From contig JBAZHE010000003.1 of NCBI GenBank assembly GCA_041652555.1, forward strand, positions 4,096 to 68,095: DNA of 64,000 nucleotides, given 5' to 3'. Shown piece by piece: positions 634 to 63,065 of this stretch (position 1 is the first letter of the stretch; each line of letters starts with the position of its first letter). Position numbers and translations under genes: made by a program. Source of the stretch: Patescibacteria group bacterium (GTDB taxonomy: Bacteria > Patescibacteriota > Patescibacteriia > Patescibacteriales > WJLG01). The notes beneath the pieces were generated by a model. The model was given only the letters and a program-made list of their open reading frames with translations, was not told where the DNA came from and ran no database searches.

Positions 634-1839
634 ATGCCTTCTTGGAAACACCCTCTTGGAATTAATGTTCTTGAAGCAGCGCAACAAAGAATTTCTTGGA
701 CATTTGATACCTTTCCAAAGATTTGTGTAAGTTTTTCCGGGGGGAAAGATTCTACTGTAATGTTACATCTTGTAGCAACAGAAGCAAAAAAACGTAATCG
801 TAAGTTCGCCGTTCTTTTTGTAGATTGGGAGGCGCAATATAAATACACAATAGATCACGTATCAGAAATGTTCACTCTTTACGAAGATCTCATAATCCCT
901 TTCTGGATCTCACTCCCTTTAAAAACCGTTAATGCTGTTTCCCAATTTGAACCGGAGTGGATTTCGTGGGAGCCAGATAAGGAAAGTTTGTGGGTGAGAC
1001 AACCACCATCTATTGCTATAACTGACCCTGCGATGCTACCATTCTATTCTTACGCCATGACATTCGAAGAGTTTGTTCCATCATTCCTTCAATGGTATTC
1101 TAATGGGACTCCGACTGCTTCATTCGTAGGTATTCGTACGCGCGAATCATTAAACAGATGGAGAACAATAGGAGCAGGAAAGAAACATTCTTACGATAAT
1201 AAATGCTATACCACAGTCGATAAAAGTGTTTGTAACATATTCCCAATCTACGATTGGACTGTAGATGATATATGGACATTCCACGGCAGAACAAATCTTC
1301 CGTATAATAAACTCTATGATCAAATGGCGCGTGCTGGTGTGCCTCTCCATAAGATGCGAATATGCGAACCATATGGCCCGGAACAGCGACAAGGATTGTG
1401 GTTATTTCATGCAATTGAACCAGATACTTGGGGGAAAGTTGTCGCGCGCGTGAATGGAGCAAATATGGGATCCATTTATGCAAATGAAAAAGGTAATGTA
1501 TTAGGAATCAATCAAATTGTTTTACCGACGGAGCATACTTGGAAATCATTCGCTACACACCTTCTTGATTCAATGCCCACAAAAACATCGGAACATTATA
1601 AAAACAAAATCGCTGTTTACTTGAAGTGGTATCAAGATAAAGGTATTACAATACCTGATACACAACCCAAAGATTGTGGAAGTTCTGATAATCATCCATC
1701 GTGGAAACGAATATGTAAGACCATTCTCCGGAATGATTTTTGGTGCAGAACACTTTCTTTCGCACCAACAAAAACATCAGCATATGAAAAATATTTAAAA
1801 TTAATGAAAATAAGGAGAGAAAAATGGGATCTGATTTAA
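634..1839 (+). CDS. PAPS-reductase / PP-loop ATPase family protein (IbrA / DndC-like)
   Basis: PP-loop motif VSFSGGKDSTVMLHL near N-terminus; length and long C-terminal extension typical of IbrA-like (DUF3440-type) proteins; TATA-like box 599-607. Confidence 0.8.
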   Translation: MPSWKHPLGINVLEAAQQRISWTFDTFPKICVSFSGGKDSTVMLHLVATEAKKRNRKFAVLFVDWEAQYKYTIDHVSEMFTLYEDLIIPFWISLPLKTVNAVSQFEPEWISWEPDKESLWVRQPPSIAITDPAMLPFYSYAMTFEEFVPSFLQWYSNGTPTASFVGIRTRESLNRWRTIGAGKKHSYDNKCYTTVDKSVCNIFPIYDWTVDDIWTFHGRTNLPYNKLYDQMARAGVPLHKMRICEPYGPEQRQGLWLFHAIEPDTWGKVVARVNGANMGSIYANEKGNVLGINQIVLPTEHTWKSFATHLLDSMPTKTSEHYKNKIAVYLKWYQDKGITIPDTQPKDCGSSDNHPSWKRICKTILRNDFWCRTLSFAPTKTSAYEKYLKLMKIRREKWDLI

Positions 1840-2465
1840 TCGAAAAAACAAAAGAAATATCAAAAGAACTATCTGAATATTCAGAGTCGGAACAATTGTT
1901 TTTACTCAATCAAATACGAACAATTCTTCACGAAACAAGTCCAATGAAAAATGAACCGGTTGATCTTGTGTTATGGGTCAAATCTGAAACAGTGGGAAAA
2001 AACGATTATAACCCAAATACCGTTGCACCCCCGGAGATGAAATTACTTGAAACTTCAATCATAGAAGATGGATATACGCAACCGGTAGTTTCTTGGAAAA
2101 CGAACAATATTTTTGAAGTTGTTGATGGATTCCACAGAACAAGAGTAGGAAAGGAAAGCAAAGATGTCATTACACGTACACATGGATATTTACCCATTGT
2201 TAAAGTCAATCAAGAACGAACTGATCGTAATGATCGTATGGCTTCCACAATCAGGCACAACCGCGCGCGGGGGAAGCATATCGTATCGGGTATGAGCGAA
2301 ATCGTACAAGAACTAGCACATCGCAGATGGAGTAACGAGAAGATTGGTCATGAACTGGGGATGGAACCCGATGAAGTGTTACGGTTAAAACAAGTAATGG
2401 GTCTTGCAGATTTATATAAAGAACGGGAATTTTCAGAAGCGTGGGAAGCGAAAGAACAAATTTAA
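1824..2465 (+). CDS. ParB N-terminal domain nuclease-like protein (IbrB-like)
   Basis: ParB-type motif VVDGFHRTRVG and ..HNRARGKH..; overlaps upstream PAPS-reductase gene; AAGGAG RBS 7 nt upstream. Confidence 0.75.
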   Translation: MGSDLIEKTKEISKELSEYSESEQLFLLNQIRTILHETSPMKNEPVDLVLWVKSETVGKNDYNPNTVAPPEMKLLETSIIEDGYTQPVVSWKTNNIFEVVDGFHRTRVGKESKDVITRTHGYLPIVKVNQERTDRNDRMASTIRHNRARGKHIVSGMSEIVQELAHRRWSNEKIGHELGMEPDEVLRLKQVMGLADLYKEREFSEAWEAKEQI

Positions 2466-2479
2466 AAAGGAGTATTAAA

Positions 2480-3208
2480 ATGCCACTACAAAAAGGTACG
2501 GAAAGATACAGATTGTGGAAAGAACACATTGATGAGGCTGCTGATAAAAGGAAAAATATTCCATTATCCCCAGAACATTGTGAAAAAATAAGCGAGTCTA
2601 ATAAAGGACGTATAAAATCTAAAGAAGAATGCGAACATATTAGCAAGGGGCTTAAAAACAAACCCAAGACACCGGAACATCGTAAGCATTTAAGTGAGGC
2701 CAATATGGGAAAAACGTCTCCAAGGAAAGGTGTAAAATTATCTGATGCAACAAAAGAAAAGATTCGAGTGTCGAAACTTGGAATGAAATCATCTTTAGAA
2801 ACATGCGAAAAAATAAGTGAATCTTTAATAGGAAATACCAGAACACTTGGTTATGTCCATTCTGATGAAACCAAAATTAAGATGAGAAAATCAGCACATC
2901 GTGGACCCGACCATCCCAATTATAGAGGGGGGATAACCGCACTTGATAAAGCAATACGAAGACTTCCTGAATATGATACTTGGAAATATGGTGTATTTGA
3001 ACGAGATGATTACACCTGTAGAGAATGTGGGAAACGCGGGGGAGATATGGAAAGTCACCACGATAGAAAAACATTTGCTCAAATTATAAAAGATAATAAT
3101 ATTAGAACTATCGAAGACGCATTAAATTGTAAAGAACTATGGGACATTGATAACGGAGTTACATTGTGTGTTGATTGCCACGACAAAAGACACACGAAGA
3201 AAGAATAG
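2480..3208 (+). CDS. HNH homing endonuclease with NUMOD3-type repeats
   Basis: Repeated H..K(I/L)SE..KG modules; C-terminal YTCRECG...ESHH...DNGVTLCVDCHDKRH (HNH with Zn cysteines); start moved to ATG 2480 behind AAGGAG RBS, N-terminus parallels paralogs. Confidence 0.8.
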   Translation: MPLQKGTERYRLWKEHIDEAADKRKNIPLSPEHCEKISESNKGRIKSKEECEHISKGLKNKPKTPEHRKHLSEANMGKTSPRKGVKLSDATKEKIRVSKLGMKSSLETCEKISESLIGNTRTLGYVHSDETKIKMRKSAHRGPDHPNYRGGITALDKAIRRLPEYDTWKYGVFERDDYTCRECGKRGGDMESHHDRKTFAQIIKDNNIRTIEDALNCKELWDIDNGVTLCVDCHDKRHTKKE

Positions 3209-3210
3209 AT

Positions 3211-3906
3211 ATGCCACCACCGAAAGATCCGGAAAAATATGCTGCATGGATAGAAAAACAAAGATTATCCCATATAGGGAAACATGCATCACAATCCACC
3301 ACTGATAAAATGATCGCGTCACATAAAGGTCTAATTCCTTGGAATAAAGGTGTGCCTTCAACAGAAGTATCCAAGCATAACCAAAGTATCGCATTAAAAA
3401 ACAAACCGAAACCCCCACGAACAAAAGAACATTGTGAAAATATAAGCAAATCAAAAATGGGAAAAAACAATCCGATGTTTGGAGAACATCATACATTTGA
3501 CGCACATATAAAAATGCACAACGCGCAATTGGGGAATACTAAAAAACTTGGATATCATTTCCCGTTAGAAACTAGAATAGGAATGAGTGAAGAAAATAGA
3601 GGAGAAAATGCATCCCGATGGGAAGGTGGGATAACTCCATTGAATAAAATGATCCGTGAGTCGTGGGAATATAGAGAATGGGTAATTGCCGTTTTCATTA
3701 GAGATAATTATACTTGCCAAAAATGCAAAACGCGCGGTGGGTATTTAGAAGCACACCACATAAAACTATTTTCTTTGATTTTAAAAGAATATAATATATT
3801 AACACTGGAAGATGCAAAGAATTGTAAAGAATTGTGGGACATAGATAATGGTATAACATATTGTGTAGATTGTCACAAAGACATACATTTCAAAAATAAT
3901 AAATAA
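3211..3906 (+). CDS. HNH homing endonuclease with NUMOD3-type repeats (paralog 2)
   Basis: MPPPKDPEKY N-terminus as in paralog 3; YTCQKCK..LEAHH...DNGITYCVDCHKDIH; directly abuts paralog 1 stop. Confidence 0.8.
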   Translation: MPPPKDPEKYAAWIEKQRLSHIGKHASQSTTDKMIASHKGLIPWNKGVPSTEVSKHNQSIALKNKPKPPRTKEHCENISKSKMGKNNPMFGEHHTFDAHIKMHNAQLGNTKKLGYHFPLETRIGMSEENRGENASRWEGGITPLNKMIRESWEYREWVIAVFIRDNYTCQKCKTRGGYLEAHHIKLFSLILKEYNILTLEDAKNCKELWDIDNGITYCVDCHKDIHFKNNK

Positions 3907-3907
3907 C

Positions 3908-4771
3908 ATGCCTCCTCCGAAAGATCCAAAAAAATACGACGAGTGGATAAGAAAAAACAGCGAAGCACATAAAAATAAACATCCGTCTGAAGAAACACGA
4001 AATAAATTAAAAGGAAGAAACCCGTGGAATAAAGGAATACCATTATCAGAAGAAGCAAAACAAAAATTGAGTGAATCTTGTAAAGGTAGAATCCCTTGGA
4101 ATAAAGGTGTCCCTCATAAACAAGAATCTAAAAATAAAATGAGCATAAAGAAAAAAGGTATCCCATTATCAGAAGAACATAAAAAACATTTATCCGAATC
4201 TCACAAAGGATTAAAGCCAAACGTGACTCCGGAATCTATAGAAAAAAATCGTATTGCTCATCTTGGTAAAAAGGCATCGGAAGAAACAAAAGAAAAGATG
4301 AGTATATCACATAAAGGAAAATCTTCGTGGAATAAAGGAATTAAAACTCCGATAGAAATTAGAAATAAAATGAGCAAATCGATGAAAGGAATAAAAAAGT
4401 CTGATGGATTTAGAAAAAATATGAGTGGTGAAAACAATCTTAACTGGAAAGGTGGTATTACAGAATTGGATAAAGCAATCCGTGCATTACCGGAAATGTT
4501 CGAGTGGAGAAGAAAAGTTTTTGAACGCGACCATTATAGAGATTGTTTTACAGGAAGTCTTGGAAATCACAATATCGAAGCGCATCATATTGTCGCGGTA
4601 TCTTTAATTATGGAAAGATTTAATATAACTTCGATAGAAGATGCTTTAAATTGTGAAGATATGTGGAATATAGATAACGGAGTAACAATGTTTAAAAATT
4701 CACATATTGAGCATCACAAAAAATACAAATTACAAATATTACCAAAAGAATATTATTTTAAAAACCAATAA
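3908..4771 (+). CDS. NUMOD3-repeat endonuclease paralog 3 with degenerate HNH
   Basis: About 8 copies of xSEExKxKxSxSxKGxxPWNKG; C-terminal IEAHH...DNGVTMFKNSHIEHH lacks the Zn-binding cysteines present in paralogs 1-2. Confidence 0.7.
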   Translation: MPPPKDPKKYDEWIRKNSEAHKNKHPSEETRNKLKGRNPWNKGIPLSEEAKQKLSESCKGRIPWNKGVPHKQESKNKMSIKKKGIPLSEEHKKHLSESHKGLKPNVTPESIEKNRIAHLGKKASEETKEKMSISHKGKSSWNKGIKTPIEIRNKMSKSMKGIKKSDGFRKNMSGENNLNWKGGITELDKAIRALPEMFEWRRKVFERDHYRDCFTGSLGNHNIEAHHIVAVSLIMERFNITSIEDALNCEDMWNIDNGVTMFKNSHIEHHKKYKLQILPKEYYFKNQ

Positions 4772-5410: not shown

Positions 5411-5666
5411 AACTTATACCGAAGATGAAATGAAAAAAGCAATGAAATATGTACAGAAGAAAGAACGCCTCATCAGCGCGCTTAACAGTGCTGTGCGCAC
5501 CGCAGAAGCACCAATCTATGCAGAAGCATTAAATGAACTTATCGTGCTTCTTATTGAAGATAAACTCCTTCCGGATTCCTTTGATATCCACAAGTACTTT
5601 TCTGACCTGTATCCGCGAGCGACGCAGAAAAAAGAAGCAAAGGATGAAGATAAAGACGTCAATTAA
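5403..5666 (+). CDS. hypothetical protein (87 aa)
   Basis: ORF track 5349..5666 trimmed to ATG 5403, which overlaps stop of upstream small ORF. Confidence 0.45.
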   Translation: MTETYTEDEMKKAMKYVQKKERLISALNSAVRTAEAPIYAEALNELIVLLIEDKLLPDSFDIHKYFSDLYPRATQKKEAKDEDKDVN

Positions 5667-5710
5667 AAGCGGTTTGGAAATTTATTAATCTTTTTTAATT
5701 ACCCTTTGTG

Positions 5711-5746
5711 TACACCAAACATAACCACTGTGTTAATGTTGGTGTA
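5711..5746. terminator. 11-12 bp hairpin at 3' end of tRNA array and of plus-strand unit
   Basis: tacaccaaacat ... atgttggtgta (one bulged A). Confidence 0.4.
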
Positions 5747-5764
5747 TGGAAGGGGGATTTTTAA

Positions 5765-5844
5765 TAGGTCTGGCCGGAGTTGAACCGGCTTACACATAGA
5801 CCGTGTTTGAGACGGTTCCATAGCCGTTCTGGATACACAGACCC
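5765..5844 (-). tRNA. tRNA-Leu(CAA)-like, class II (long variable arm), irregular D region
   Basis: Hand fold on minus strand: acceptor GGGTCTG/CAGACCT (G1-U72), anticodon arm ACCGT-CTCAAAC-ACGGT, T arm GCCGG-TTCAACT-CCGGC; acceptor/D junction has extra nt. Confidence 0.6.
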
Positions 5845-5847
5845 AAA

Positions 5848-5929
5848 TGAGTGATGCCGGATGCGCGCCGGCGATGTTTCCTTGTACGGAGTCTAAATCC
5901 GGTGAAGTCGGCTTCTGTTCCAATCACTC
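5848..5929 (-). tRNA. tRNA-like gene, anticodon UAG (Leu), aberrant T and D loops
   Basis: Acceptor GAGTGAT/ATCACTC, anticodon loop TTTAGAC, long variable arm; T loop is CGCGCAT (no TTC) and D loop lacks GG. Confidence 0.4.
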
Positions 5930-5948
5930 TCGATTTCCCACAATGGGA

Positions 5949-6033
5949 TGCGTCCGTCAGGATTTGAACCTGAAATGTTTCGCTTCGTCACAGTGTTTAA
6001 GACTGTTGCGTTCAACCGTTTCGCCACGGACGC
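5949..6033 (-). tRNA. tRNA-Leu(UAA), class II
   Basis: Acceptor GCGTCCG/CGGACGC, D arm GCG-AAACGGTTGAA-CGC, anticodon arm ACAGT-CTTAAAC-ACTGT, T arm TCAGG-TTCAAAT-CCTGA. Confidence 0.85.
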
Positions 6034-6035
6034 GA

Positions 6036-6119
6036 TGTGTGAAGCAAGATTTGAACTTGCGTCGTTTCCTTGTCTGGAACCTCGATCCAGTGGAGTCAAC
6101 CGTGCTGTCCCATTCACAC
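6036..6119 (-). tRNA. tRNA-Leu(GAG), class II, C at position 33
   Basis: Acceptor GTGTGAA/TTCACAC, D arm GGA..TCC, anticodon arm CTGGA-TCGAGGT-TCCAG, T arm GCAAG-TTCAAAT-CTTGC. Confidence 0.7.
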
Positions 6120-6168
6120 ATAACTTATATGTTTTCAAATCATTTATACTTTCCCCTATGTAAGAGGA

Positions 6169-6253
6169 CGCCAACGACAGGAATTGAACCTGCAACCCTG
6201 TTAAGGGCGACGGTTTTCAGGACCGTTTAGCGCACCGCACTCCCCACGTTGGC
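6169..6253 (-). tRNA. tRNA-Ser(UGA)-like, class II, C33 and atypical D arm
   Basis: Acceptor GCCAACG/CGTTGGC, anticodon arm ACGGT-CCTGAAA-ACCGT, variable stem CCCT/AGGG, T arm GCAGG-TTCAATT-CCTGT. Confidence 0.55.
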
Positions 6254-6262
6254 AATAATATG

Positions 6263-6338
6263 AGCCGGATGAGAGAATTGAACTCCCGCCCTTTCGATTA
6301 CAGATCGAATGCACCAAACCAACAGATGCTTATCCGGC
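6263..6338 (-). tRNA. tRNA-Thr(UGU), class I, C at position 33
   Basis: Acceptor GCCGGAT/ATCCGGC, D arm GCAT..GTGC, anticodon arm TTCGA-TCTGTAA-TCGAA, T arm GGGAG-TTCAATT-CTCTC. Confidence 0.7.
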
Positions 6339-6340
6339 GA

Positions 6341-6428
6341 CGCTGCCTGAAAGATTTGAACTTTCGTTTCCGATCAGGAAAGCAACTTTAGCAGAATTGC
6401 GGCATAAACCAGACTCGCCCAAGGCAGC
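6341..6428 (-). tRNA. tRNA-Ser(GCU), class II
   Basis: Acceptor GCTGCCT/AGGCAGC, D arm GGC..GCC, anticodon arm CAATT-CTGCTAA-AGTTG, variable stem TTTCC/GGAAA, T arm GAAAG-TTCAAAT-CTTTC. Confidence 0.85.
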
Positions 6429-6580
6429 AAGATGAAACCAATACAAAACACCCTCACGATGTGGTGAGAAGCGTCAAACTGGACAGTAAACGCAATGATA
6501 GAATAGATGTTGATACGTTTATATTTACTGTCATGATATATAATAGTGTATGTTGTAATAGTATTTAAATATTTCTACAA

Positions 6581-6662
6581 TTGGTGGAGAGGGATTTGAA
6601 CCCTCGAAGCACTAAACACCGGATTTTGAATCCGGCCCCTTTGACCGCTCGGGTATCCACCA
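6581..6662 (-). tRNA. tRNA-Leu(CAA), class II, U1-A72
   Basis: Acceptor TGGTGGA/TCCACCA, D arm CCC-GAGCGGTCAAA-GGG, anticodon arm CCGGA-TTCAAAA-TCCGG, T arm GAGGG-TTCAAAT-CCCTC. Confidence 0.8.
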
Positions 6663-6792
6663 GTCATAGAATATAGGTGTTGTTTCTATTTAAAATGTTG
6701 GTTCGGAAATATATAGGTTAACTTTATATACTATAAAAATTTACTATACAACTAATTTATATACCACCAATAGTTTTAATATTTAAACCTTT

Positions 6793-9700
6793 CTAAAAAC
6801 CCCACTTCCCCAACGTCGGAGTCGCCGGGTCAAACTCGCACCAGTTGAAATTCAACGGTTCCATAATCCGTGATAACGGAGTCTTTAAAGTCTTCTCTAA
6901 CATTGTATCAACATCAACTATAAAAATGTTTCTATCTATTTGATCCGCATACTCAAAACAAACTACATCCGTGCGCGGATATTTTGAAGTAACATTCTTA
7001 ATATATAAACGTTTCGGTTTTGACCCCTTACCAAAATTCGTTCCCAGATAAGTGTTAGAATACACCGCCGCGCGCACCTGCGCATCTTGGATATCATATT
7101 CTTCCAATGGTTTACCAATGCCGCCGGGAATTCCTACATCGTCGAGACTATATTTACCCGCGCGGTATTTACGTATAACATCCGAAATAGTAGTTCTGAT
7201 TTCTTCATAAGGTTTGCCCTCAAGAACCATCTCGATAAGTGTTTTCATTGCGTCACGTGTGACCTTGGGGGAATCCGACCGCTTGGTTTCAAAACCCACA
7301 ATATCAATTTTATGCGCGTCTACACCTTCCTTCCAAATAAGGAGTCCAGCGTATCGCTTCTTCTTCCCGCCGCTAAAAAATCTCTGGTATAATTTTTCAA
7401 ATTTCACGGAGAAATATTGAACATCGGCATTTAATGTTTCTTTTGCAAACTGTGGATATGAGTTATTAAGAAGCGTTTCAAGTTCCTTCGCAATAAACAT
7501 AGTTCCTTCTTTCCCAATACTTTTTGGTATCTTTATACCAACCGAATCGGTATCACCAAAAACAATTTTATATTCTTCGTGTTCTACAAGTTTTTTGTTG
7601 TGCTCCAAAAGCGCGCGCCCTACTGATGTAATAGCCGAACCCACGTCACGGTCATTAAGACGGAACATCGGATTTGCCGAAACCCCATAATAAGAATTCA
7701 TGCAAACCTTAACCACGTCCTGTTTCATATTTAAAAGTTTATACTCACGAGAATCAAAAGGATACTTATTCCGTTCCTTTTTCATCTCATCTCGTTCACG
7801 TAAAAATTTCGCCTGAATCTTTCTAACCAATCCATCGGGTTCTTTTTTAAATCTGACACCATTAGGAGCGCGCAGTTCTCCTTTTGGATCTTTGGTTTCT
7901 GGAGATGCATTAATAGTCATCATCGACATTGGATACAATGATTTAGCATCCAAAACAGCAACGTTTTCTTGCACTCCGCGCATGGGAGCAATAACCGTAG
8001 CCCCTTCAAACGATTCTTGTGTATTTATAGAATTTGCCTTTGAAGGTAAAATAAACCCATTTTCTTTTGCTTCTCTCAAAACCAACATATCAATAATAGG
8101 CATACTATTTGTTGTCTTTTCCAGAGGACACCCGGCATAATGAGCAACATACCTGTGGAATTCAACAGTTTCGTCTTTTGCATTAATACCTACACATAAT
8201 TCCACATCAGTGAAGTTATAGTAAACCAGATTGGTAGGATCTTCTTTCCATAAATCGAAAACCTTTCCATTGTGATGGATTTTTTGTTTCCCCAATTCTT
8301 CTAATGCTATTGCATCAAGGCGATAAGAAGGTTGTTCACCCAAATGCATTCTTTTATACCCGGATAATAAATCAAAAAGTTGACGACCTTTGATTTCTAT
8401 GCGCCCGGTGTTTCCACTAGGCAACCGCGACCACGCATCGCGCGGGATACCTAATACATCCATACGACCCAGAATGTAAGGTATATCAAATTCATTACAA
8501 TTATGTACAACGCAACCAATCGAAAAATTATGTTCTGTCGTTTCAATATCGTAGCAATTTTTAGGCACGTCGTTACTTACATTTTTTACCCGCAGATACA
8601 TATTAGTTAGATTTCTATTAAAATTAAATCTGAAATGATCTTTCCTAGTAACTCGTTTTCTCTTAATTATATGGATTTTATTTTTTATTTTCTTCTGCAA
8701 AAACTTTTTCATACACTCTAATAGTTTTTGGGTTATACATAAGATCCGTAAATTTATATTACATGTAGATGAAGTTATCGCACCAAATCCTGCAAATAAC
8801 TGAAAATGCCGAATATTAATAGTATGATCTCCTATACAAAAGACATCTGAATACCCATCGCCATCATACCATCCAGCTAAAAAAGCCCCGAACTCTTCTA
8901 CAGATAGACGAGATAATAAACCAAAATTGAGTTGTTTCTTATCACCAACCAGAATGAGATGTTCTGCCCCTTTTAGATCTCGCTGCAATATATTAGAACA
9001 CCAGACACCTTTTGTAAACCATCTATGGTTTTCCCCGCAACATCTATTAATGAGGTTTATATTTTTATTGTAAAATCTAAATCTCCACTTATCTGGTCTG
9101 GCGCCATCGGAATAAATAAGTCCAGCCCTGTAACAATTAAAAGGATCAAGCCCGAGACCAATATTATTTTCATACTGCCGTATTGGAATATGCAATATAC
9201 TATCAGAAGTTATATTTTTAGAAATTTCGTATGTTGGTTCATAGTTTTCGCAATGTTCCCACACATAATGACGATCTTGTGGAATTTGAGAAACTAACAT
9301 TCGATGATCTTCCCCAACAATAAAATCCCATCCAATAGATGTTCTTATACGAGTTGTATTCTTAACCCCCGTATTATAAACGGATACAACTTTTCCACCT
9401 GTGTTTAAAACAATACCCGGTATTAATGCCTTAATTGGTATAAGACCGTTTTTTGTGTCAACCATTGTATCTTCTGGAACGCAGTTCCACCCCGTAATAA
9501 TATCCGGATCTGTGGATTTGATATATTCACAAAAATCCACAAGAAGAGATTTTTCATCCGTGTATGTTATAACGTCGTGGTGAGCGGGATCAAAGCACCC
9601 GTTCTCTTTAGGTGTTTCTATAAGAGGTGAAGTAGCGACAACAAATGTAATATAACGATTTGTAAAACTATCATGACAAGTAATGCAAAAAATTGGATCT

Positions 9701-10164
9701 TTCGTTGCATCCGGGAACCCGCGTTCATCAGAACATTCAATATCCACAATACAAACGCGCGCGGGATAGTTTAAATCTTTGAATAATATGTCGTCAATCG
9801 TGCATGGTGATTGTGTATAAGAGAAACCAGATTTTATTTTTGTATCAATCAGAAACCTCAATGTGTATAAAATATCCGCTTCATAGTGTTTAGAAAACTT
9901 CTCGCGCGATTCAAAAATGTCACCGGGTTTTTGAGTAATGACTTTCACCAAAGGTTCATGGAGAATGGAAAAATATTCATTTGAATCAACTTCGGAGGGT
10001 GGTGTTGCTTTGGGGGATTCTGATGCGGGAACAAAAAAATAAGGTTTGAAACCAACCACATCCACACGATGAGAAACACCGGAGGAGTCACGACCGAAGA
10101 TGTTAATGACAGGAGAGTTGTTATGGAAGGAGTATTCGGCTTGAGTTAAGCAGAGATCAGGCAT
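6793..10164 (-). CDS. polB: family B DNA polymerase, intein-containing (795-aa extein + 328-aa intein)
   Basis: Exo I VDIECS, Exo II GWN/CNEFDIPY (split by intein), motif A DAKSLYPMSMM, motif B KVCMNSYYGV, motif C VFGDTDSV. Confidence 0.95.
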   Translation of the reverse strand: MPDLCLTQAEYSFHNNSPVINIFGRDSSGVSHRVDVVGFKPYFFVPASESPKATPPSEVDSNEYFSILHEPLVKVITQKPGDIFESREKFSKHYEADILYTLRFLIDTKIKSGFSYTQSPCTIDDILFKDLNYPARVCIVDIECSDERGFPDATKDPIFCITCHDSFTNRYITFVVATSPLIETPKENGCFDPAHHDVITYTDEKSLLVDFCEYIKSTDPDIITGWNCVPEDTMVDTKNGLIPIKALIPGIVLNTGGKVVSVYNTGVKNTTRIRTSIGWDFIVGEDHRMLVSQIPQDRHYVWEHCENYEPTYEISKNITSDSILHIPIRQYENNIGLGLDPFNCYRAGLIYSDGARPDKWRFRFYNKNINLINRCCGENHRWFTKGVWCSNILQRDLKGAEHLILVGDKKQLNFGLLSRLSVEEFGAFLAGWYDGDGYSDVFCIGDHTINIRHFQLFAGFGAITSSTCNINLRILCITQKLLECMKKFLQKKIKNKIHIIKRKRVTRKDHFRFNFNRNLTNMYLRVKNVSNDVPKNCYDIETTEHNFSIGCVVHNCNEFDIPYILGRMDVLGIPRDAWSRLPSGNTGRIEIKGRQLFDLLSGYKRMHLGEQPSYRLDAIALEELGKQKIHHNGKVFDLWKEDPTNLVYYNFTDVELCVGINAKDETVEFHRYVAHYAGCPLEKTTNSMPIIDMLVLREAKENGFILPSKANSINTQESFEGATVIAPMRGVQENVAVLDAKSLYPMSMMTINASPETKDPKGELRAPNGVRFKKEPDGLVRKIQAKFLRERDEMKKERNKYPFDSREYKLLNMKQDVVKVCMNSYYGVSANPMFRLNDRDVGSAITSVGRALLEHNKKLVEHEEYKIVFGDTDSVGIKIPKSIGKEGTMFIAKELETLLNNSYPQFAKETLNADVQYFSVKFEKLYQRFFSGGKKKRYAGLLIWKEGVDAHKIDIVGFETKRSDSPKVTRDAMKTLIEMVLEGKPYEEIRTTISDVIRKYRAGKYSLDDVGIPGGIGKPLEEYDIQDAQVRAAVYSNTYLGTNFGKGSKPKRLYIKNVTSKYPRTDVVCFEYADQIDRNIFIVDVDTMLEKTLKTPLSRIMEPLNFNWCEFDPATPTLGKWGF
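8500..9483 (-). mobile_element. intein with LAGLIDADG homing endonuclease in PolB (residues 228-555)
   Basis: Starts CVPEDTMVDTKNG, ends CVVHN followed by +1 Cys; two LAGLIDADG motifs (YRAGLIYSDGA, FLAGWYDGDGY); removal restores T4/RB69-like GWNxxxFDIPY. Confidence 0.9.
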
Positions 10165-16642: not shown

Positions 16643-17336
16643 ATGGAAACTTACGAAGATAAACTCATTAAAGAACGATATTGCGTCGATGGAGAAAATA
16701 GTTATCCCGATGTTTGTGAACGTGTAGCGCGATTCATTTCAAGCAACGACGAACAATATCATCAGTTCAAGAAAATTCTTGTAGATAAAGATTTTTTGCC
16801 CAACTCACCAACCCTGATGAATGCCGGAACTTCTAACCCCGCCTTGTCAGCGTGTTTCTTTTTGCCGGTAGAAGATACAATTGAAAGTATTTTTGATGCT
16901 AACAAAAATGCAGCAAAAATCTTCGCTCGTGGGGGCGGGGTCGGATTCAATTTCTCAAAACTCCGACCCGCTGGAAGCAAAGTTGGAAAACGCAACGGTG
17001 TTTCCTCCGGTGTGGTTTCATTTATGGAAGTTTTTAACACAATGACAGAGGTTGTCAAGCAAGGAGGCCGTCGCCGGGGAGCTATGATGGGATGCCTTGA
17101 TATTGCGCATCCAGAAATCAAAAACTTTGTGACATGTAAACAGACAGAAGGAAAACTCTCTAACTTTAATATCTCTGTCAAACTCACAGATGAATTCATG
17201 AAGAATCCCACACCCGAAATCATGAACTTGATTGTGAACGGAATTTACAATAACGGAGAGCCGGGAATTCTGTTCAAAGATACAATCGAAAAGTATAACC
17301 CGGCTCCCGAATATGGAGAACTCAATACAAATCCAT
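16643..17336 (+). CDS. nrdJ: class II (B12-dependent) ribonucleotide reductase, exon 1
   Basis: FLPNSPTLMNAG, LSACFFLPVEDT, GGGVGFNFSKLRPAGS, QGGRRRGAMM; exon ends ...NTNP + T (first base of the Cys codon). Confidence 0.9.
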
Positions 17337-17607
17337 TAAACTCCGTGTGGATTTAAAATCGCGTAAATTGCTGGAACACCCTTAAGCATCTCTAACTACA
17401 ACGCAATCAGAAATGATAAACGTGAACGTTTTAAAAATAGAAATGATTGGGCAATCAGCAGCCAAGCATCTTATCAATAAGATGAAGGTTCAGAGACTAT
17501 AGACGCGACATCGATGATATAGTCCGATCTCATATGAGAATATGAGAGTGTGACAGAAATGATCACACCTGCAACGAAGCATCGTTGCTGTAACAAAAAA
17601 CCTCTTG
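17337..17607 (+). ncRNA. group I self-splicing intron, 271 nt, no ORF
   Basis: P1: exon AATCCAT (17330-36) pairs with intron GTGGATT (17347-53), U-G wobble at the splice site; core CAGAGACTATA (17491-501) and GATATAGTCC (17516-25) with P7 GACTA/TAGTC; three 3' hairpins; terminal G 17607; splicing gives an in-frame TNPCGE. Confidence 0.85.
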
Positions 17608-19001
17608 GCGGGGAGGCTCTATTAGAATCATGGGGGAGCTGCAACTTGGGTAGCATCAACCTTTCCCACCACATAAAAGACAATGCAATTGACTACGACA
17701 AACTCAAAGCCACAATAGACACAGCGGTTATATTCCTCAATAATGTAATCGACAAAAACAAATACCCACTCCAAGAAATTGACTTTGCATCCAAGCGAAC
17801 GCGCAAGATCGGTCTCGGTGTTATGGGATTCCACGACGCGTTGATTAAAATGGGGATTCCTTATAATAGTCAGAAGGCACTTGATATTGCCGAAGAAATT
17901 ATGAAATTTATTAATGAGCGCGCACATGAAGTGTCAGAGTCATTGGGTAAGAATCCGAATATCAAACAGAACAGGTTAAATGCTTCATTGACTTCGATTG
18001 CACCAACGGGAACAATTAGTATTATTGCGGGTGCTTCATCAGGTATCGAACCCGCATTTAATTGGGTATATACGCGGCATGACACGTTGGGCGAACATTA
18101 TATTGTGCATCCGTTGTTTGAAGAAGCGTTGAAAAATCTAATGACTGATCTTAATGGCAAAGTAGGATTCTTCGTAACCGTGGATGGCGTAAAATATGAT
18201 ACGTTGGATGGAACGAGACAAGCCATTATTAGACACTGCCATGAAAAGGGGACGATTCGCGATATAGAATTTTTACCAGATTCTTTCAAACTCCTCTACC
18301 AAAACGCAATGGACATCCCTTCATCAATGCACGTAAAAATGCAGGCCACATTCCAAAAGAATGTGGATATGTCCATTTCAAAAACAATCAACCTTCCAAA
18401 CTCTGCTACTAAAGAAGAAATCAAACAGATCATTATTGACGCGTGGAAGAGTGGTTGTAAAGGTCTTACAATCTATCGCAATGGTAGCCGTGAGAATGAA
18501 GTGTTGGCACTTAAGAAACCCGTGGTTGTTGAAAGTATCGTAGATTGGATCGAAACTGAAAATGCTTTCTACGAATCCAAAACCCCCGCTGTAATTTACA
18601 AAGTCCATAGTGGATGCGGGAAATTCTATGTTATCATTGGCCACGACAAAGAGGAACCAACAATGATCTTTGTGGAAGGTGATGGTGTTGGTGGGTGTCA
18701 GGCAAATATGGCAGCAATGGGGCGTTCTATTTCGGCAGGATTGGAATGGGGGACACCAGCAGAGAACTATGTAAAACAATTCTCTAAAGTAAAGTGCATG
18801 ACGGCGATGCAGAACAAATTATCGTGTGGTAAATCGTGCGCGGATATTACAGGAAAATGTTTGGACGATGCGATAAAAATGTTAATGCCCAAAAGTATAA
18901 AGGTTGAAGCAACAGAAGAAAAATGTTGTGACGCGCCGCATTATGTGATGGAAGGCGGATGCAGGATTTGTACGAATTGTGGCAAAAGTAGGTGTTCGTG
19001 A
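17608..19001 (+). CDS. nrdJ: class II ribonucleotide reductase, exon 2
   Basis: Begins GC GGG GAG.. giving C-GEALLESWGSCNLGSINL; RKIGLGVMGFHDAL, TSIAPTGTIS, ISKTINLP; Cys-rich C-terminal tail; exons total 2088 nt = 695 aa. Confidence 0.9.
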
Positions 19002-19318
19002 TGGTTAATCAAAAACTAACACCCCCACTACCGTGCCATAGAACCGGAGAAATCTACATCAACTTCGAAGATTGTAACCAAGACATTCTCTTATTTTGTG
19101 CGTTTCGATACGCTCTCGGTCGTCAAACTTATGTTGTCAGCACTATCGCTGATATCATAAAAGCAAACTGGGATCATATGCCACAGAGTAGAAGAAATCT
19201 TTTTAGAAAAGAAATAGAAGAAGCGATTGAAAAGGGATATGCGGGTAGTGTAAATATTGATGTGCCGGAATGGTTGTCGATTTTGCACTTGGTTGATACG
19301 GTGGTTGGAAATGATTGA
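19001..19318 (+). CDS. conserved phage-type hypothetical protein (105 aa)
   Basis: FRYALGRQTYVVS motif as seen in many phage proteins; ATG 19001 behind AGGTG RBS. Confidence 0.55.
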   Translation: MVNQKLTPPLPCHRTGEIYINFEDCNQDILLFCAFRYALGRQTYVVSTIADIIKANWDHMPQSRRNLFRKEIEEAIEKGYAGSVNIDVPEWLSILHLVDTVVGND

Positions 19319-19685
19319 CAAAAATGAAAAACTATTACCATGTCCATTTTGTGGAAGTAACGATCTAGAAATAGTGCCAGATCTGGCAGAAGATGATAAC
19401 AACCGAATTTATGCATATCATGTTTTTTGTAAAGATTGCTATGCGAGGGGGAGAAATCTCTATCCTCATTGTTGGTGCGAATCCGAACAACAAGCAATCG
19501 AAGCGTGGAACAATAGATTTATTCCAGCAATGATACCTGATGAAGTTGATGATAACCGTGTTCAATTATCTACAGATGCATTATTTATTATTAGAAGAGA
19601 ACTTATGAATTCTGAAAATATAATTAAACATATAAACGATCTTTTAACGCCAATTCAAATGGTTTCAAAAAAGGAGAAAAAATGA
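19311..19685 (+). CDS. Lar-family restriction-alleviation-like zinc protein
   Basis: LLPCPFCGSNDLEI ... CKDC ... QQAIEAWNNR, hallmark of Lar-like proteins; start at ATG 19311 overlapping upstream stop. Confidence 0.6.
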   Translation: MIDKNEKLLPCPFCGSNDLEIVPDLAEDDNNRIYAYHVFCKDCYARGRNLYPHCWCESEQQAIEAWNNRFIPAMIPDEVDDNRVQLSTDALFIIRRELMNSENIIKHINDLLTPIQMVSKKEKK

Positions 19686-26958: not shown

Positions 26959-27143
26959 AAGATGGTTATAAATTAACAATATTTTTAAGTGTTATAGTAA
27001 TAATATTGGCAATATTTATACATGGCACAGTTATTCATTTAACACAAGTGGGTGAATTTCAAAAATGTGTAAATGCAACACTTTCTGATCCACTCTATTC
27101 CACATTTGCATGTGATAGACCGGGATGGTGGTTTGGAATATGA
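26955..27143 (+). CDS. small membrane protein (62 aa)
   Basis: ORF track; one TM helix; AAGGAGG RBS. Confidence 0.5.
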   Translation: MKDGYKLTIFLSVIVIILAIFIHGTVIHLTQVGEFQKCVNATLSDPLYSTFACDRPGWWFGI

Positions 27144-31196: not shown

Positions 31197-31345
31197 AAAC
31201 GAACTACGATATATATTTCCAAGTTTACAACACATCATCTAAAAAATGGGTGAAATATGATAGAACACAGGGGAGAGTCGTGGATATCAAAGACGATGGC
31301 GAACCGTATGAAAATATACAGATATATAATGAGGGGATAAAATGA
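31193..31345 (+). CDS. small hypothetical protein (50 aa)
   Basis: Not in track; ATGA overlaps at both ends. Confidence 0.4.
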   Translation: MKTNYDIYFQVYNTSSKKWVKYDRTQGRVVDIKDDGEPYENIQIYNEGIK

Positions 31346-32142
31346 TCCTACCACCCTCCTACTTCGAGATCACAACCAAAATCGGTTGCTCAATCAACTG
31401 CCTAAAATATTGTCCACAGGAAACGATTATTAAAAATTACAAAGGTAATCCTTTAATGACACTTGACCAGTTCAAAAACTTTATGAAAACGGTTCCACAA
31501 AATCTACCCATTTTCTTTTCTGGTCTATGCGAACCATTCCTTAATCCACAGACAACAGATATGATTATGTGGGCACATCACAAAGGACACCCCATTTCTA
31601 TATTTAGCACACTAACCGGATTGACACCAACTAATGCTTGTAGGTTAATTGATATTCCCATCGACAAATTTGTCCTTCACCTCCCCGACGCTTATGGTAA
31701 TGCCAAAATCCCACAAACACAAGATTACTTTGAAGCACGCTCCATTATTGAAATGAATGTTAAGCATCTCGAATATATGAACATGGGGTGGGGGTTTATT
31801 TCCAATAAGTGCGAGGATATGGCGCGCGGTCGGGCCGAATTAAAAAAAGGGCGTAGACTTTGCAACTTCCTAGAATCACCTGCTTATCAACTCCTGCCCA
31901 ATGGCAACGTGTTCTTTTGTTGTATGGTGCGCGGGTTGACGGAGAAGGTTGGGTCGTTGTATGAGAATACATATCTAGAGTTGGCAGCGCGACATGGAAA
32001 GATCTCTGATAGATTGCAGAAAGACCAAAATTCTATTTGTCATTATTGTAATGTGTCGGAGAAATATTGGTTGAGGAGAGCGATACAAAAGAAGAATGAG
32101 TTGTTGAAGGGTAAGACGATTATGCAGGTGTTGGGGGTTTGA
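31342..32142 (+). CDS. radical SAM protein
   Basis: N-terminal GCSINCLKYC (CxxxCxxC); C-terminal Cys pairs (FFCC, CHYC). Confidence 0.7.
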   Translation: MILPPSYFEITTKIGCSINCLKYCPQETIIKNYKGNPLMTLDQFKNFMKTVPQNLPIFFSGLCEPFLNPQTTDMIMWAHHKGHPISIFSTLTGLTPTNACRLIDIPIDKFVLHLPDAYGNAKIPQTQDYFEARSIIEMNVKHLEYMNMGWGFISNKCEDMARGRAELKKGRRLCNFLESPAYQLLPNGNVFFCCMVRGLTEKVGSLYENTYLELAARHGKISDRLQKDQNSICHYCNVSEKYWLRRAIQKKNELLKGKTIMQVLGV

Positions 32143-46960: not shown

Positions 46961-47881
46961 CTACTTCACCTTTCTTTTTATAACGATGCGAGCATAAACT
47001 TTTTTTCCATTTATATATGGATACCCATAATTAAATTCATCAATCTTTGTGGTTGTCATACATCCAATAATCTCAAACTGATCTGGGTTATATTTATCAA
47101 TAAATGTAATTGGAACACCGAACTCGCCAAAATAATCTATTGGTATATCTTTAATCTTATTCACATTAATAGCATCATAATTGTCATATTCGGGATACTC
47201 TACATCATTATATTTTTTATAAAGAATCAATTCTTCGCATCTCTTCTTTATTTCGAGATTTGTAAACCAATAAGTATTACCCATACCACGATATTTAATC
47301 CCATTTTCTTCTCTACATCCATTACTATTTAATTCATAATAATTAGGCACTATATATTCTTTATATCCATTATTATACCCAACCCATATTTTATTCTCTT
47401 TAAGCAGGGGGAAAATTTCTTTATAAGTAATAGCATTCAAACTCCCAATAATCAAAAACCTCTTTTCATATTCCATCAACTGCGCTACATATTCACGGAA
47501 TAAAGAAAATGGTGGGTTGGTAACAACAATATCGGATTCTTTCAATAACTCGATACATTGCGGGCTTCTAAAATCACCGTTTTCTTCCAAATTTGTTTCT
47601 TTAAAGTCCACGCCGTCGTATTCTAGTTTATATGTGGGTTTCAATGAATCATAATGTGTCGATATTAATTTCTTCAACCCAAGATATTTAAACTTTAAAC
47701 AAAAATAACCCGTGAAGTTACTTTCTCTCGGATCATCACAATTGCAGAAAACGGTCTTCCCTTTGAAATATTCTTTATAATGTTTTAATTCCTTTTCTAT
47801 ATCGGACATTTGTGTGTAAAACTCATCCTGCTTATCTTTCTTTGCTTTGTTAAGTTGGCAGTTCTTTGAAGTTGTAGTCAT
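46961..47881 (-). CDS. adenine-specific DNA methyltransferase (EcoRI-methylase-like)
   Basis: DEFYTQ near N-terminus, motif IV VVTNPPFSLF; stop abuts start of the DUF262-HNH gene. Confidence 0.75.
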   Translation of the reverse strand: MTTTSKNCQLNKAKKDKQDEFYTQMSDIEKELKHYKEYFKGKTVFCNCDDPRESNFTGYFCLKFKYLGLKKLISTHYDSLKPTYKLEYDGVDFKETNLEENGDFRSPQCIELLKESDIVVTNPPFSLFREYVAQLMEYEKRFLIIGSLNAITYKEIFPLLKENKIWVGYNNGYKEYIVPNYYELNSNGCREENGIKYRGMGNTYWFTNLEIKKRCEELILYKKYNDVEYPEYDNYDAINVNKIKDIPIDYFGEFGVPITFIDKYNPDQFEIIGCMTTTKIDEFNYGYPYINGKKVYARIVIKRKVK

Positions 47882-55725: not shown

Positions 55726-55766
55726 CCTTCATCTTGTGTTCCGCATACACATGAAACCTGCGGTGG

Positions 55767-63054: not shown

Positions 63055-63065
63055 CTAATCGAAAC

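Follow-up and report, generated by a model that had tools for sequence, protein, structure and literature searches.

The stretch of DNA considered here, the 64,000 nucleotides at positions 4,096 to 68,095 of contig JBAZHE010000003.1 (hereafter the window), carries between positions 5765 and 6662 an array of eight tRNA genes, all on the minus strand, with the anticodons CAA (twice), UAA, UAG and GAG for Leu, GCU and UGA for Ser, and UGU for Thr. Immediately upstream, on the same strand, lies the gene of a family B DNA polymerase (PolB), and the space behind the first tRNA gene is occupied by a short open reading frame (ORF) preceded by a promoter-like box and ending in a hairpin. The coordinates of these elements are collected in Table 1, together with those of the other features of the window. 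The same eight genes and anticodons had been proposed by hand folding in a preliminary description of this DNA, and the ARAGORN check suggested there returns seven of them with identical anticodons. The eighth, Leu(UAG), is backed by its ortholog in the related contig L107 and by compensatory substitutions.

Table 1. Features of the tRNA array, of its leader region and of the rest of the window (positions are those of the window; ARAGORN positions are given for the array genes called by that program)
Feature	Position	Strand	ARAGORN position	Remarks
tRNA-Leu(CAA)-1	6581..6662	-	6581-6662	canonical class II, U1-A72, A73; Rfam 59.1 bits
tRNA-Ser(GCU)	6341..6428	-	6339-6429	class II, 17-nt variable arm, G73, canonical loop CTGCTAA; Rfam 46.6 bits
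tRNA-Thr(UGU)	6263..6338	-	6262-6338	class I, loop TCTGTAA (C33), A8 for U8, U73; Rfam 33.2 bits
tRNA-Ser(UGA)	6169..6253	-	6166-6254	class II, loop CCTGAAA (C32 C33), 5-nt linker TGGGG, 5-bp D stem with GGT loop, G73
tRNA-Leu(GAG)	6036..6119	-	6034-6120	class II, loop TCGAGGT (C33), A73; Rfam 44.7 bits
tRNA-Leu(UAA)	5949..6033	-	5949-6033	canonical class II; Rfam 59.3 bits
tRNA-Leu(UAG)	5848..5929	-		remodelled elbow: D loop CAGAAGCCGAC (no GG), T loop CGCGCAT; full cloverleaf by hand fold
tRNA-Leu(CAA)-2	5765..5844	-	5765-5844	irregular: G1.U72, 5-nt linker TGTAT, 10-nt variable region, A73
TATA-like box P1	6687..6694	-		TTTAAATA; ends 24 nt before the mature 5' end of Leu(CAA)-1
TATA-like box P2	6562..6569	-		TTTAAATA; 27 nt before the ATG of the 26-codon ORF; spacing equal in L003 and L029
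TATA-like box P3	6142..6149	-		GTATAAAT; 22 nt before Leu(GAG); window only
26-codon ORF	6454..6534	-		MTVNINVSTSILSLRLLSSLTLLTTS, then stop; proposed leader or sensor peptide
Leader hairpin with tail	6441..6470	-		TTCTCAC-CACATC-GTGAGGG; pattern match 6451-6470 plus T-rich tail TGTTTTGTAT; ORF stop codon in 3' arm; flagged by terminator scan
Spacer hairpin	5930..5948	-		TCCCA-TTG-TGGGA; same spacer of L003 has a different hairpin, TCCC-GAAA-GGGG
23-nt motif	6710-6732	-		upstream of P1
PolB gene	6793-10164	-		immediately upstream of the array
Insert in PolB	8500-9483	-		residues 228-555
PAPS-reductase/DUF3440 gene, then ParB-like gene	634-2465			TATA-like box 26 nt before the first ATG
Three tandem NUMOD3/HNH genes	2441-4771			about 1 kb from the array
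Ribonucleotide reductase ORFs	16643-17356 and 17550-19001			split by the group I intron
Group I intron	17327-17546			Rfam 67.3 bits
Lar-like gene	19257-19685			restriction-related
B12-binding radical-SAM protein	27125-29617			interrupted by intein (Pfam Intein_splicing, residues 246-512)
Radical-SAM-like ORF	31342-32142			
GmrSD/HNH gene	45857-46960			restriction-related
EcoRI-type methylase gene	46961-47881			restriction-related
Metallo-beta-lactamase ORF	52164-52991			ComEC-like
tRNA, anticodon UGC (Ala)	55653-55727			U3-A70; U73
tRNA, anticodon CAU	62978-63055			G1-C72, U6.U67 mismatch, 7-nt variable region

All eight tRNAs of the array were segmented by hand, with gene ends shifted by 1-3 nt relative to those of ARAGORN, and each stem was then checked by script. 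Every one of them folds as a cloverleaf with a 7-bp acceptor stem, a D stem of 3-5 bp, a 5-bp anticodon stem closed by a 7-nt loop and a 5-bp T stem, at most one non-pair being found per gene, and none encodes the CCA end. The variable regions of the seven Leu and Ser genes measure 13, 17, 16, 13, 16, 13 and 10 nt, compared with 5 nt in the Thr gene; seven of the eight genes are thus class II, the 10-nt case of Leu(CAA)-2 being marginal. From Ser(GCU) onward the spacers are of 2 (Ser-Thr), 9, 49, 2 (Leu-Leu), 19 and 3 nt, in agreement with the earlier remark that some of the genes stand only 2-3 nt apart. In a search restricted to positions 5600-6800, the Rfam tRNA model (RF00005) places five of the eight genes above its gathering score of 29 bits, and three tRNAs of the array are reported by a whole-window run at gathering thresholds. 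The 5600-6800 search gave no match at E<=10 for either Leu(UAG) or Leu(CAA)-2, Leu(UAG) being called neither by ARAGORN nor by Rfam. As for Ser(UGA), its best Rfam match is tRNA-Sec with 40.7 bits, which is under the gathering score of 47 of that family; an identity as tRNA-Sec was rejected on this ground, and also because the anticodon is not UCA and the acceptor/T arrangement is 7/5.

At the DNA level, no similarity was found between the region and deposited phages or archaeal viruses. Single-protein patterns in IMG/VR yielded no close relatives of PolB, and pattern scans of that database with four array motifs gave L107 as sole find; the relatives came from an alignment-based search, which identified metagenomic sequences (designated here by L numbers) whose PolB is 56-87% identical to that of the window. 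Nearly all of them have a single tRNA gene, Leu(CAA)-1, right behind the polymerase. This gene, which follows PolB in L001, L003-L005, L007, L009-L011, L028, L029, L031, L034, L108 and L189-L195, is a near-constant feature of the virus clade. BLAST mapping shows that the relatives devoid of the cassette align to the window up to about 6571-6579 and restart at about 5764-5786; since the alignment gap spans that stretch, they lack everything from the spacer behind Leu(CAA)-1 to the last tRNA. The module is also absent in all of the further PolB-bearing contigs L108 and L189-L197. L004 has Leu(CAA)-1 and an irregular Leu gene with anticodon UAA, and no other module genes; L196, listed with Leu(CAA)-1, shows the same gene layout as L004 in a layout comparison made without a tRNA scan. 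The 128-kb contig L003 carries the full array and adds a tRNA-Cys(GCA), and the contig of L029 ends within the array, past Ser(GCU). L107, the 7-kb IMG/VR contig from the motif scan, has the full array without Leu(CAA)-1, again with an additional tRNA-Cys(GCA), and with a second irregular-type copy (anticodon UAA) standing in for the canonical Leu(UAA). The same site therefore holds 1, 2 or 8-9 tRNA genes, depending on the relative. These alignments indicate that the array is an optional cassette, in which the seven genes Ser(GCU)-Thr(UGU)-Ser(UGA)-Leu(GAG)-Leu(UAA)-Leu(UAG)-Leu(CAA) are inserted between Leu(CAA)-1 and the next gene. Three complete arrays (window, L003 and L107) and four leaders (the same and L029) were available for comparison.

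Comparison of the orthologs reveals extensive compensatory change in the stems. Five pairs of Leu(CAA)-1 are changed on both sides among four sequences without any broken pair, and in a comparison of the window with L003 and L107, 16 of the 21 stem pairs of Thr(UGU) have both partners substituted, again with none broken. The corresponding figures are 11 of 20 pairs for Leu(GAG), 9 of 20 across five homologs for the irregular Leu(CAA)-2, four pairs for Ser(UGA) and two for Leu(UAA) relative to L003. Ser(GCU), for which L003 and L107 have a different sequence at the same place, shows a compensatory change in comparison with L029, and in Leu(UAG) two pairs covary, the window, L003 and L107 differing by double changes in the acceptor and T stems. 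Only 0-1 broken pairs were counted per family, and the anticodons of the orthologs are either kept or switched only inside the UUR Leu box. Because compensatory changes are found with almost no broken pairs, structural selection acts on Leu(UAG) and Leu(CAA)-2 as it does on the other members. Small perfect hairpins of unrelated sequence are also common in the spacers between the tRNAs (window 5930-5948, L003 13412-13432 and 13175-13209, and the spacers of L107), of which TCCCA-TTG-TGGGA and AACTATCTGG-AATT-ACCAGATAGTT are examples; they may be processing signals.

Some members of the array depart from the near-universal U8, G18G19, U33, T54-Psi55-C56 and A58, the remaining ones being canonical. 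The preliminary description had assigned C instead of U at position 33 to three members, while allowing that this C33 could disappear on another fold. The three loops (TCGAGGT, CCTGAAA and TCTGTAA) do carry it, and it persists, since the 7-nt registers are set by covariation of the stems. More precisely, the anticodon stem of Ser(UGA) reads ACGGT/ACCGT in the window and ACCGT/ACGGT in L003, the swap of G29-C41 to C-G fixing the register of the loop; the stems of the Leu(GAG) orthologs are CTGGA/TCCAG, CAAGA/TCTTG and CCAGC/GTTGG; and those of Thr(UGU) are three unrelated sequences in the window, L003 and L107. Other registers in which U33 would reappear, such as those with 9-nt loops or with GAA or GUA as anticodon, were rejected on the basis of this covariation, and they are also contradicted by identity elements, namely G73 and the long arm for Ser, and G1-C72, C2-G71 and U73 for Thr. 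All three arrays have C33 in both Ser(UGA) and Thr(UGU), even though their Thr genes share almost no stem sequence; at this position of Leu(GAG), C is found in the window and L003 and U in L107. Among the viral tRNAs examined, C33 is limited to these three families. As the virus is AT-rich, a change from U to C goes against the mutational bias. Given that C33 recurs in related viruses while the stems covary, it looks to be under selection in Thr(UGU), Ser(UGA) and Leu(GAG) rather than a product of decay.

The elbow of the molecule is affected in Leu(UAG), for which the previously noticed combination of the T loop CGCGCAT with a D loop lacking GG holds true. In L107, the ortholog has the D loop CAGTGGCCGAA and the T loop TTCGAAT and is called Leu(UAG) by ARAGORN, so the window and L003 share a joint loss of G18, T54, T55 and A58. 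After that loss, separate double changes took place, C-G replacing A51-U63 in the window while G-C replaced A6-U67 in L003, and this gene is consequently best regarded as a tRNA with a rebuilt elbow and not as a decaying copy. The two irregular D regions noted earlier were found as well: they correspond to the 5-nt linkers of Ser(UGA) and Leu(CAA)-2, in place of U8-N9. These linkers and the remodelled elbow of Leu(UAG) are kept by selection. Besides, the variable arm of the window Leu(GAG), ACAAGGAAACGAC, is of the Leu(UAG) type (6036-6075 compared with 5848-5890), while Leu(GAG) of L003 and L107 has an unrelated arm of 18-19 nt; this points to recombination between members of the array.

The spacer of 150 nt between Leu(CAA)-1 and Ser(GCU) is conserved among the window, L003, L029 and L107 to a degree that exceeds the conservation of the tRNAs. 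Three TATA-like boxes, P1 to P3, are found in and around the array. Upstream of Leu(CAA)-1, 13 distinct sequences, that of the window and those of 12 relatives, share a T[TA]TAAATA box whose end lies 23-24 nt from the gene, while the sequence in between varies; P1 is thereby a candidate promoter. At the site of P2, the module-less L189-L192 have a TATA-like box, TTTATATA, located 20 nt before the ATG of a 111-aa ORF that starts at the same position; the persistence of box and ATG in these contigs supports the idea that P2 and the start codon behind it are real. P3 is missing from the corresponding spacer of L003, which has a hairpin there, and could be an internal promoter. Similar boxes lie 23-27 nt before the ATG of the ORFs at 634 and 55907, and no -35 element accompanies the conserved TATA boxes. 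Such spacings between box and start are the geometry of archaeal TATA promoters and leaderless mRNAs. The window has a single copy of a 23-nt motif, AGTATATAAA(G/T)TTAACCTATATA, which lies upstream of P1 and is also found at the same place in L003 (12448-12470); in L107 (5985-6008) it directly precedes Ser(UGA). The motif AGTATATAAAGTTAACCTATATA was considered as a general promoter and rejected in view of its single occurrence in the window.

Behind P2 begins an ORF of 26 codons (ATG ACA GTA AAT ATA AAC GTA TCA ACA TCT ATT CTA TCA TTG CGT TTA CTG TCC AGT TTG ACG CTT CTC ACC ACA TCG TGA), in which Leu, Ser and Thr account for 18 of the 25 codons that follow Met (binomial P = 1.5e-8). All six Leu codons, five of the six Ser codons and three of the four Thr codons are represented, and the probability of obtaining all six Leu codons in seven draws, given viral usage, is 0.018. 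This ORF is the top outlier for Leu, Ser and Thr among 295 small ORFs, and the only sequence with at least 18 such codons among the 127,846 overlapping 25-codon windows of the six frames of the 64 kb; the few windows with 13-14 distinct Leu, Ser and Thr codons are all due to it. For each tRNA of the module, it offers a cognate codon: AGT for Ser(GCU), ACA and ACG for Thr(UGU), TCA, TCT and TCG for Ser(UGA), CTT and CTC for Leu(GAG), TTA for Leu(UAA), CTA and CTG for Leu(UAG), and TTG for Leu(CAA). The ORF occurs only together with the module and is exactly 26 codons long in the window, L029, L003 and L107, even with one 3-nt insertion and one 3-nt deletion inside the L107 copy. Of the seven changes that separate the homologs in the Leu/Ser/Thr run, five are synonymous or replace Ser by Thr, and the 3' two-thirds of the leader element are nearly invariant, synonymous sites included. 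Codon 15 is TGT in L003 and L107, the carriers of tRNA-Cys, and CGT in L029 and in the window, which is devoid of this tRNA. The stop codon lies in the 3' arm of a hairpin that is invariant in four lineages and, with its T-rich tail, is terminator-like at the level of the pattern; Ser(GCU) begins 25 nt past this stop. As a whole, the leader RNA folds as two hairpins (z = -2.8).

The gene context of the array is viral, with PolB, ribonucleotide reductase, methylases, homing endonucleases and matches to PHROG families. Besides a PAPS-reductase/ParB pair and three NUMOD3/HNH endonucleases, the gene products of the window include a ribonucleotide reductase whose gene is interrupted by a group I intron, an intein-bearing B12 radical-SAM protein, methylases, glycosyltransferases, helicases and a primase-polymerase. 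The nearest annotated matches of its PolB are those of haloarchaeal tailed viruses, with 31-33% identity. When one genome per prokaryotic species was scanned, 80 loci were obtained, 79 of which are chromosomal contigs of up to 2.9 Mb from Methanoregula, Methanolinea, Methanoculleus and other Methanomicrobiales, whose PolB is 50-54% identical to that of the window over the full length. The viral PolB clade thereby appears as a close sister of the Methanomicrobiales PolB (L110-L188), which suggests gene exchange between the viruses and that order; the Methanomicrobiales loci compared contain almost no tRNA genes.

A further indication comes from L107 (5876-6198, minus strand), where Thr(UGU) and Ser(UGA) contain inserts of 59 and 22 nt, respectively, exactly between nucleotides 37 and 38. 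Their excision regenerates the loops CCTGTAA (Thr) and CCTGAAA (Ser) of the insert-free orthologs. In the minimum-energy fold of both, nucleotides 32-35 (CCUG) form a helix with (C/A)AGG close to the insert's 3' end, beyond which come an AAA bulge and the anticodon stem. The bulge-helix-bulge (BHB) motif consists of a 4-nt helix between two 3-nt bulges (PMC7714728). In the Thr insert the helix is CCUG/CAGG, and the energy of a fold constrained to the outer stem and this helix, with the two bulges left unpaired, exceeds the minimum by 3 kcal/mol; the proposed inner helix of 3 bp did not form in the constrained fold. Cleavage is presumed here to fall at the position within the bulges that is usual for BHB motifs. 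With these features, the inserts look like archaeal-type tRNA introns in virus-encoded tRNAs. The intron mode of ARAGORN would turn the Thr gene of L107 into Tyr(GUA) with a 39-nt intron, an assignment rejected on account of the insert-free orthologs. A link between C33 and introns was rejected too, for Leu(GAG) has C33 without an intron and the C33 genes of the window are intron-free. Taken together, the host is probably archaeal and most likely a methanogen. In archaea, tRNA-Tyr is a class I molecule and Leu and Ser tRNAs are the only ones of class II; the earlier remark that Leu and Ser are served by long-armed tRNAs is therefore sharpened, as in such a host they would be the only amino acids of this kind.

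Codon demand was evaluated by comparing 47 ORFs of the window with 437 ORFs of the Methanomicrobiales loci (mean 55% GC), an order that may not be the one of the host. The virus has a GC content of 37%. Its codon frequencies, relative to those of Methanomicrobiales, are raised 7.7-fold for UUA, 6.5-fold for CAA, 4.7-fold for both UUG and CUA, 3.4-fold for AUA, 3.2-fold for AGA and CCA, 3.1-fold for ACA, 3.0-fold for AAA and UGU, 2.2-fold for AGU and 2.0-fold for UCA, the ratios of CUU and CUC being 0.9 and 0.2. Leu(UAA), Leu(CAA), Leu(UAG), Thr(UGU) and Ser(UGA), and Cys(GCA) in relatives, match over-used codons. Compensation for codon usage, as put forward in the preliminary description, is thus only in part in line with these figures: it holds for UUA, UUG, CUA, ACA and UCA but not for Leu(GAG), and relatives without the array have the same usage. 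Supplementation of decoding nevertheless remains plausible.

The best reading of the locus, which we hold to be somewhat probable, is that of a cassette supplementing decoding in an uncultivated, AT-rich virus of a probable methanogen, possibly under control of the leader-peptide type. The tRNAs would be transcribed by the host RNA polymerase from the candidate TATA boxes P1 to P3, with Leu(CAA)-1 under its own promoter, and the host would process the precursors with its RNase P and RNase Z and add CCA. A CCA-adding enzyme, an RNA ligase, an RNase Z, a deaminase and a synthetase were looked for, and none was found; the metallo-beta-lactamase ORF was rejected as RNase Z, being ComEC-like. Charging would be ensured by LeuRS, SerRS and ThrRS of the host, in keeping with the discriminators A73, G73 and U73, the long arms, and G1-C72 and C2-G71 of the Thr gene, and the charged tRNAs would boost decoding of the heavily used viral Leu, Ser and Thr codons, notably UUA, UUG, CUA, ACA and UCA. 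Ahead of the module, the 26-codon ORF would be translated, probably from a leaderless mRNA, and the progress of the ribosome through it would report on the decoding of Leu, Ser and Thr and set the read-through past the hairpin into the tRNA genes. Two logics are conceivable. In a homeostatic one, a ribosome stalled on the last 10 or so codons would cover the 5' arm and block the hairpin, giving more read-through when tRNAs are short; in the other, a ribosome keeping pace with the polymerase would block the hairpin, giving more read-through when tRNAs are plentiful. The response could have either sign, and whether a regulatory link of any kind exists between ORF and array is, in our estimation, nearly an even question.

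Several observations weigh against parts of this reading. With regard to codon demand, the codons of Leu(GAG) are not over-used, CAA, AGA, CCA and AAA are over-used without a corresponding tRNA in the window, and codon usage does not differ between relatives that have the module and those that lack it, as a consequence of which viral codon usage alone cannot explain the presence or absence of the module. With regard to the leader, the four available sequences form two clades, which reduces the match between the Cys codon and tRNA-Cys to a single evolutionary contrast; the hairpin is invariant and shows no covariation, which is uninformative because the sequence is nearly invariant; and an antiterminator, sought in the consensus fold and by eye, was not found, the two hairpins being independent with a cross-pairing of about 5 bp at most. 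In addition, the T-run behind the hairpin is short and is interrupted in L107, P3 would let Leu(GAG) bypass the leader, and to our knowledge hairpin-dependent attenuation is not established in archaea. With regard to the host, two relatives were assigned to bacterial bins, the Ser insert of L107 has 3 bp and a G.A mismatch in its 4-nt helix along with a weak inner helix, and the 5' splice-site bulge of the L107 inserts is outside the minimum-energy fold.

This leaves room for other explanations. One of them, an appreciable possibility in our view, denies the small ORF a sensor role and treats it either as the source of a functional hydrophobic peptide rich in Ser, Thr and Leu or as a reading frame that happens to overlie an element for RNA processing or termination, the tRNAs being expressed constitutively. 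The peptide could then act in the membrane or be a precursor for the radical-SAM enzymes of the genome, genes of this kind being present at two places in the window (Table 1) and, as radical-SAM/SPASM genes, in L003 and L195. The near-invariance of the 3' two-thirds of the element at synonymous sites fits a constraint at the RNA level, and the lack of both covariation and an antiterminator also speaks for this view. Against it stand the placement of the stretch richest in Leu, Ser and Thr in the six frames of 64 kb exactly at the head of an array of Ser, Thr and Leu tRNAs, the constancy of its length despite indels, the predominance of synonymous and Ser to Thr changes, and its restriction to module-bearing contigs. 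An attractive account of slightly lower probability, already raised in the preliminary description, concerns the tRNAs themselves: the host, or the virus during shut-off, would inactivate Leu, Ser and Thr tRNAs by cleavage or by modification of the 3' end, and the cassette would supply versions that escape. C33 would remove the uridine beside the usual cut site in the anticodon loop, the altered elbow and linkers would remove other recognition features, and the leader ORF would sense stalling and switch the array on. In its favour are the maintenance of C33 in Thr(UGU) and Ser(UGA) of all three arrays despite the divergent Thr stems, the joint loss in Leu(UAG) of G18, T54, T55 and A58 with helices still under selection, and the patchy distribution of the module among viruses of equal codon usage, the last being what a host-specific counter-measure would lead one to expect. 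Bacterial precedents are available, including systems that prefer class II tRNAs, as do AbiEii and MenT3. Septu cuts the variable loop of a class II tRNA (PMC13096335), viral tRNAs overcome the retron and PARIS effectors (PMC11555353, PMC11464382), and phage tRNAs with changes in the anticodon loop evade nucleases (PMC10264068); such an escape could act jointly with the leader. On the other hand, C33 is unmentioned in the latter paper, the loops of five of the eight tRNAs are ordinary, the L107 copy of Leu(GAG) has U33, no nuclease was identified, and the literature found documents no such defence for methanogens.

Far less probable is the view that the non-canonical members are decaying copies without translational role in a selfish cassette shuffled by homing endonucleases and recombination between tRNA genes. 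The three NUMOD3/HNH genes close by, the variable array content of the relatives, the two members that escape Rfam and the arm of Leu(UAG) type in the window Leu(GAG) could all be accommodated by it, but the compensatory stem changes with 0-1 broken pairs per family, which extend to the two members missed by the programs, and the anticodons kept or switched only within the UUR Leu box speak against it. It is also improbable, albeit slightly less so, that the virus is a bacteriophage, for example of Firmicutes, with misleading archaeal signals and with L107 inserts that merely disrupt genes. The bacterial bins mentioned above are metagenome-assembled genomes of Tissierellia and Paceibacterota, a group I intron and NUMOD3/HNH endonucleases are typical of phages, and there are matches to PHROG phage families. 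However, the contigs in these bins are only 23.7 and 5.7 kb long and could be mis-binned, the affinity of PolB to Methanomicrobiales chromosomes is strong and consistent over 79 genomes, the two separate inserts of L107 both lie at 37/38 and pair with nucleotides 32-35, and the conserved TATA boxes have no -35 element.

Clusters of tRNA genes are well known in viruses such as T4, T5, mycobacteriophages and HGTV-1, and at that level the array of the window is a new member. It resembles the T4 cluster of eight tRNAs, with SegB nearby, in its co-oriented genes, very short spacers, absence of protein genes between the tRNAs, adjoining homing endonucleases and variable content, SegB being often associated with tRNA genes (PMC13096335). 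It differs from that cluster by a probable archaeal host, seven of eight genes of class II, C33 conserved in three, and a codon-rich small ORF at its head, and tRNA repair enzymes were not seen in the window. Similarly, tailed archaeal viruses with a family B polymerase carry tRNA genes, 36 in the case of HGTV-1 (PMC8651126). HGTV-1, HF1/HF2 and other hafunaviruses share this combination with the window and are the source of its nearest annotated PolB matches, but the window PolB is much closer to Methanomicrobiales, and its tRNA set is confined to Leu, Ser and Thr whereas theirs is broad. As in the phage tRNAs that evade nucleases (T5 tRNA-Lys with PARIS, tRNA-Tyr with retron Eco7 and Septu, mycobacteriophage tRNAs with VapC), loops of the window depart from the norm at or near known cut sites (PMC10264068, PMC11555353, PMC11464382); the change at position 33 is nonetheless absent from the discussion in those papers. 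The leader recalls the bacterial attenuators of leu, thr, ilv, his, trp and pheST by its short codon-packed ORF ending at or in a hairpin with a T-run just before the genes to be regulated. In contrast to these, what lies downstream is a set of tRNA genes and not genes for synthetases or for enzymes of biosynthesis; the mRNA, with its archaeal-type promoter, seems to be leaderless; many different codons are sampled by the ORF where the bacterial ones repeat a single codon; and no antiterminator was found. Functional natural tRNAs with C33, such as the eukaryotic initiator tRNA-Met, or without the contact between G18G19 and T54-Psi55, as in mitochondria, do exist; the genes of the window differ from these as viral tRNAs of the elongator type for Leu, Ser and Thr without evolutionary link to them.

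In a limited search of the literature, no report was found of conserved C33 in viral elongator tRNAs, and no paper linking C33 to phage tRNAs. The same search gave no report of a joint loss of the D-loop/T-loop contact under continued selection, of a tRNA array confined to Leu, Ser and Thr, of a codon-sampling ORF before tRNA genes, or of leader-peptide control of tRNA genes or in archaeal viruses. The reason why viruses carry tRNAs is debated between codon supplementation and escape from tRNA-targeting immunity, and almost nothing is known for viruses of methanogens. In this context, the cassette represents a compact test case, being optional, made up of Leu, Ser and Thr only, and endowed with U33-breaking tRNAs apparently under selection and with a candidate sensor whose codons mirror the downstream tRNAs. 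If the small ORF gates the array, this would show that tRNA supply can be regulated by sensing decoding capacity itself and that archaea make use of leader-peptide logic; protection by C33 from a nuclease would point to an undiscovered tRNA-directed defence in methanogens. Both ideas can be combined, a leaderless ORF that samples every Leu codon and most of those for Ser and Thr (and Cys where tRNA-Cys is present) gating the cognate array by stalling, with C33 and the rebuilt elbow evading tRNA inactivation. This combination is rather unlikely; if true, it would be the first leader-peptide control of tRNA genes, among the first ribosome-mediated attenuators in archaea, and a new evasion route for viral tRNAs.

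Among the other features of the window, the three tandem NUMOD3/HNH genes, of which relatives have one to three at the same place, recall the SegB/tRNA clusters of T-even phages. The insert in PolB amounts to about 328 aa relative to the 794-aa relatives and is located between GWN and CNEFD; it ends with VVHN followed by Cys, which is an intein signature, and the polymerases of L010 and L011 are of equal length. Relatives have inteins in the ribonucleotide reductase gene that is split in the window by the group I intron, and the B12-binding radical-SAM protein is likewise interrupted by an intein. Restriction-related functions are represented by the Lar-like, GmrSD/HNH and EcoRI-type methylase genes. 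Two tRNA genes stand apart from the array. The one with anticodon UGC (Ala) has U3-A70 in place of the alanine-defining G3.U70 and bears the motif GGAGTTCGCA at its 5' end, the first 10 nt of which recur about 110 nt downstream (55764-55775). The one with anticodon CAU could be an elongator Met tRNA or an Ile2 tRNA reading AUA, the latter codon being among those over-used by the virus.

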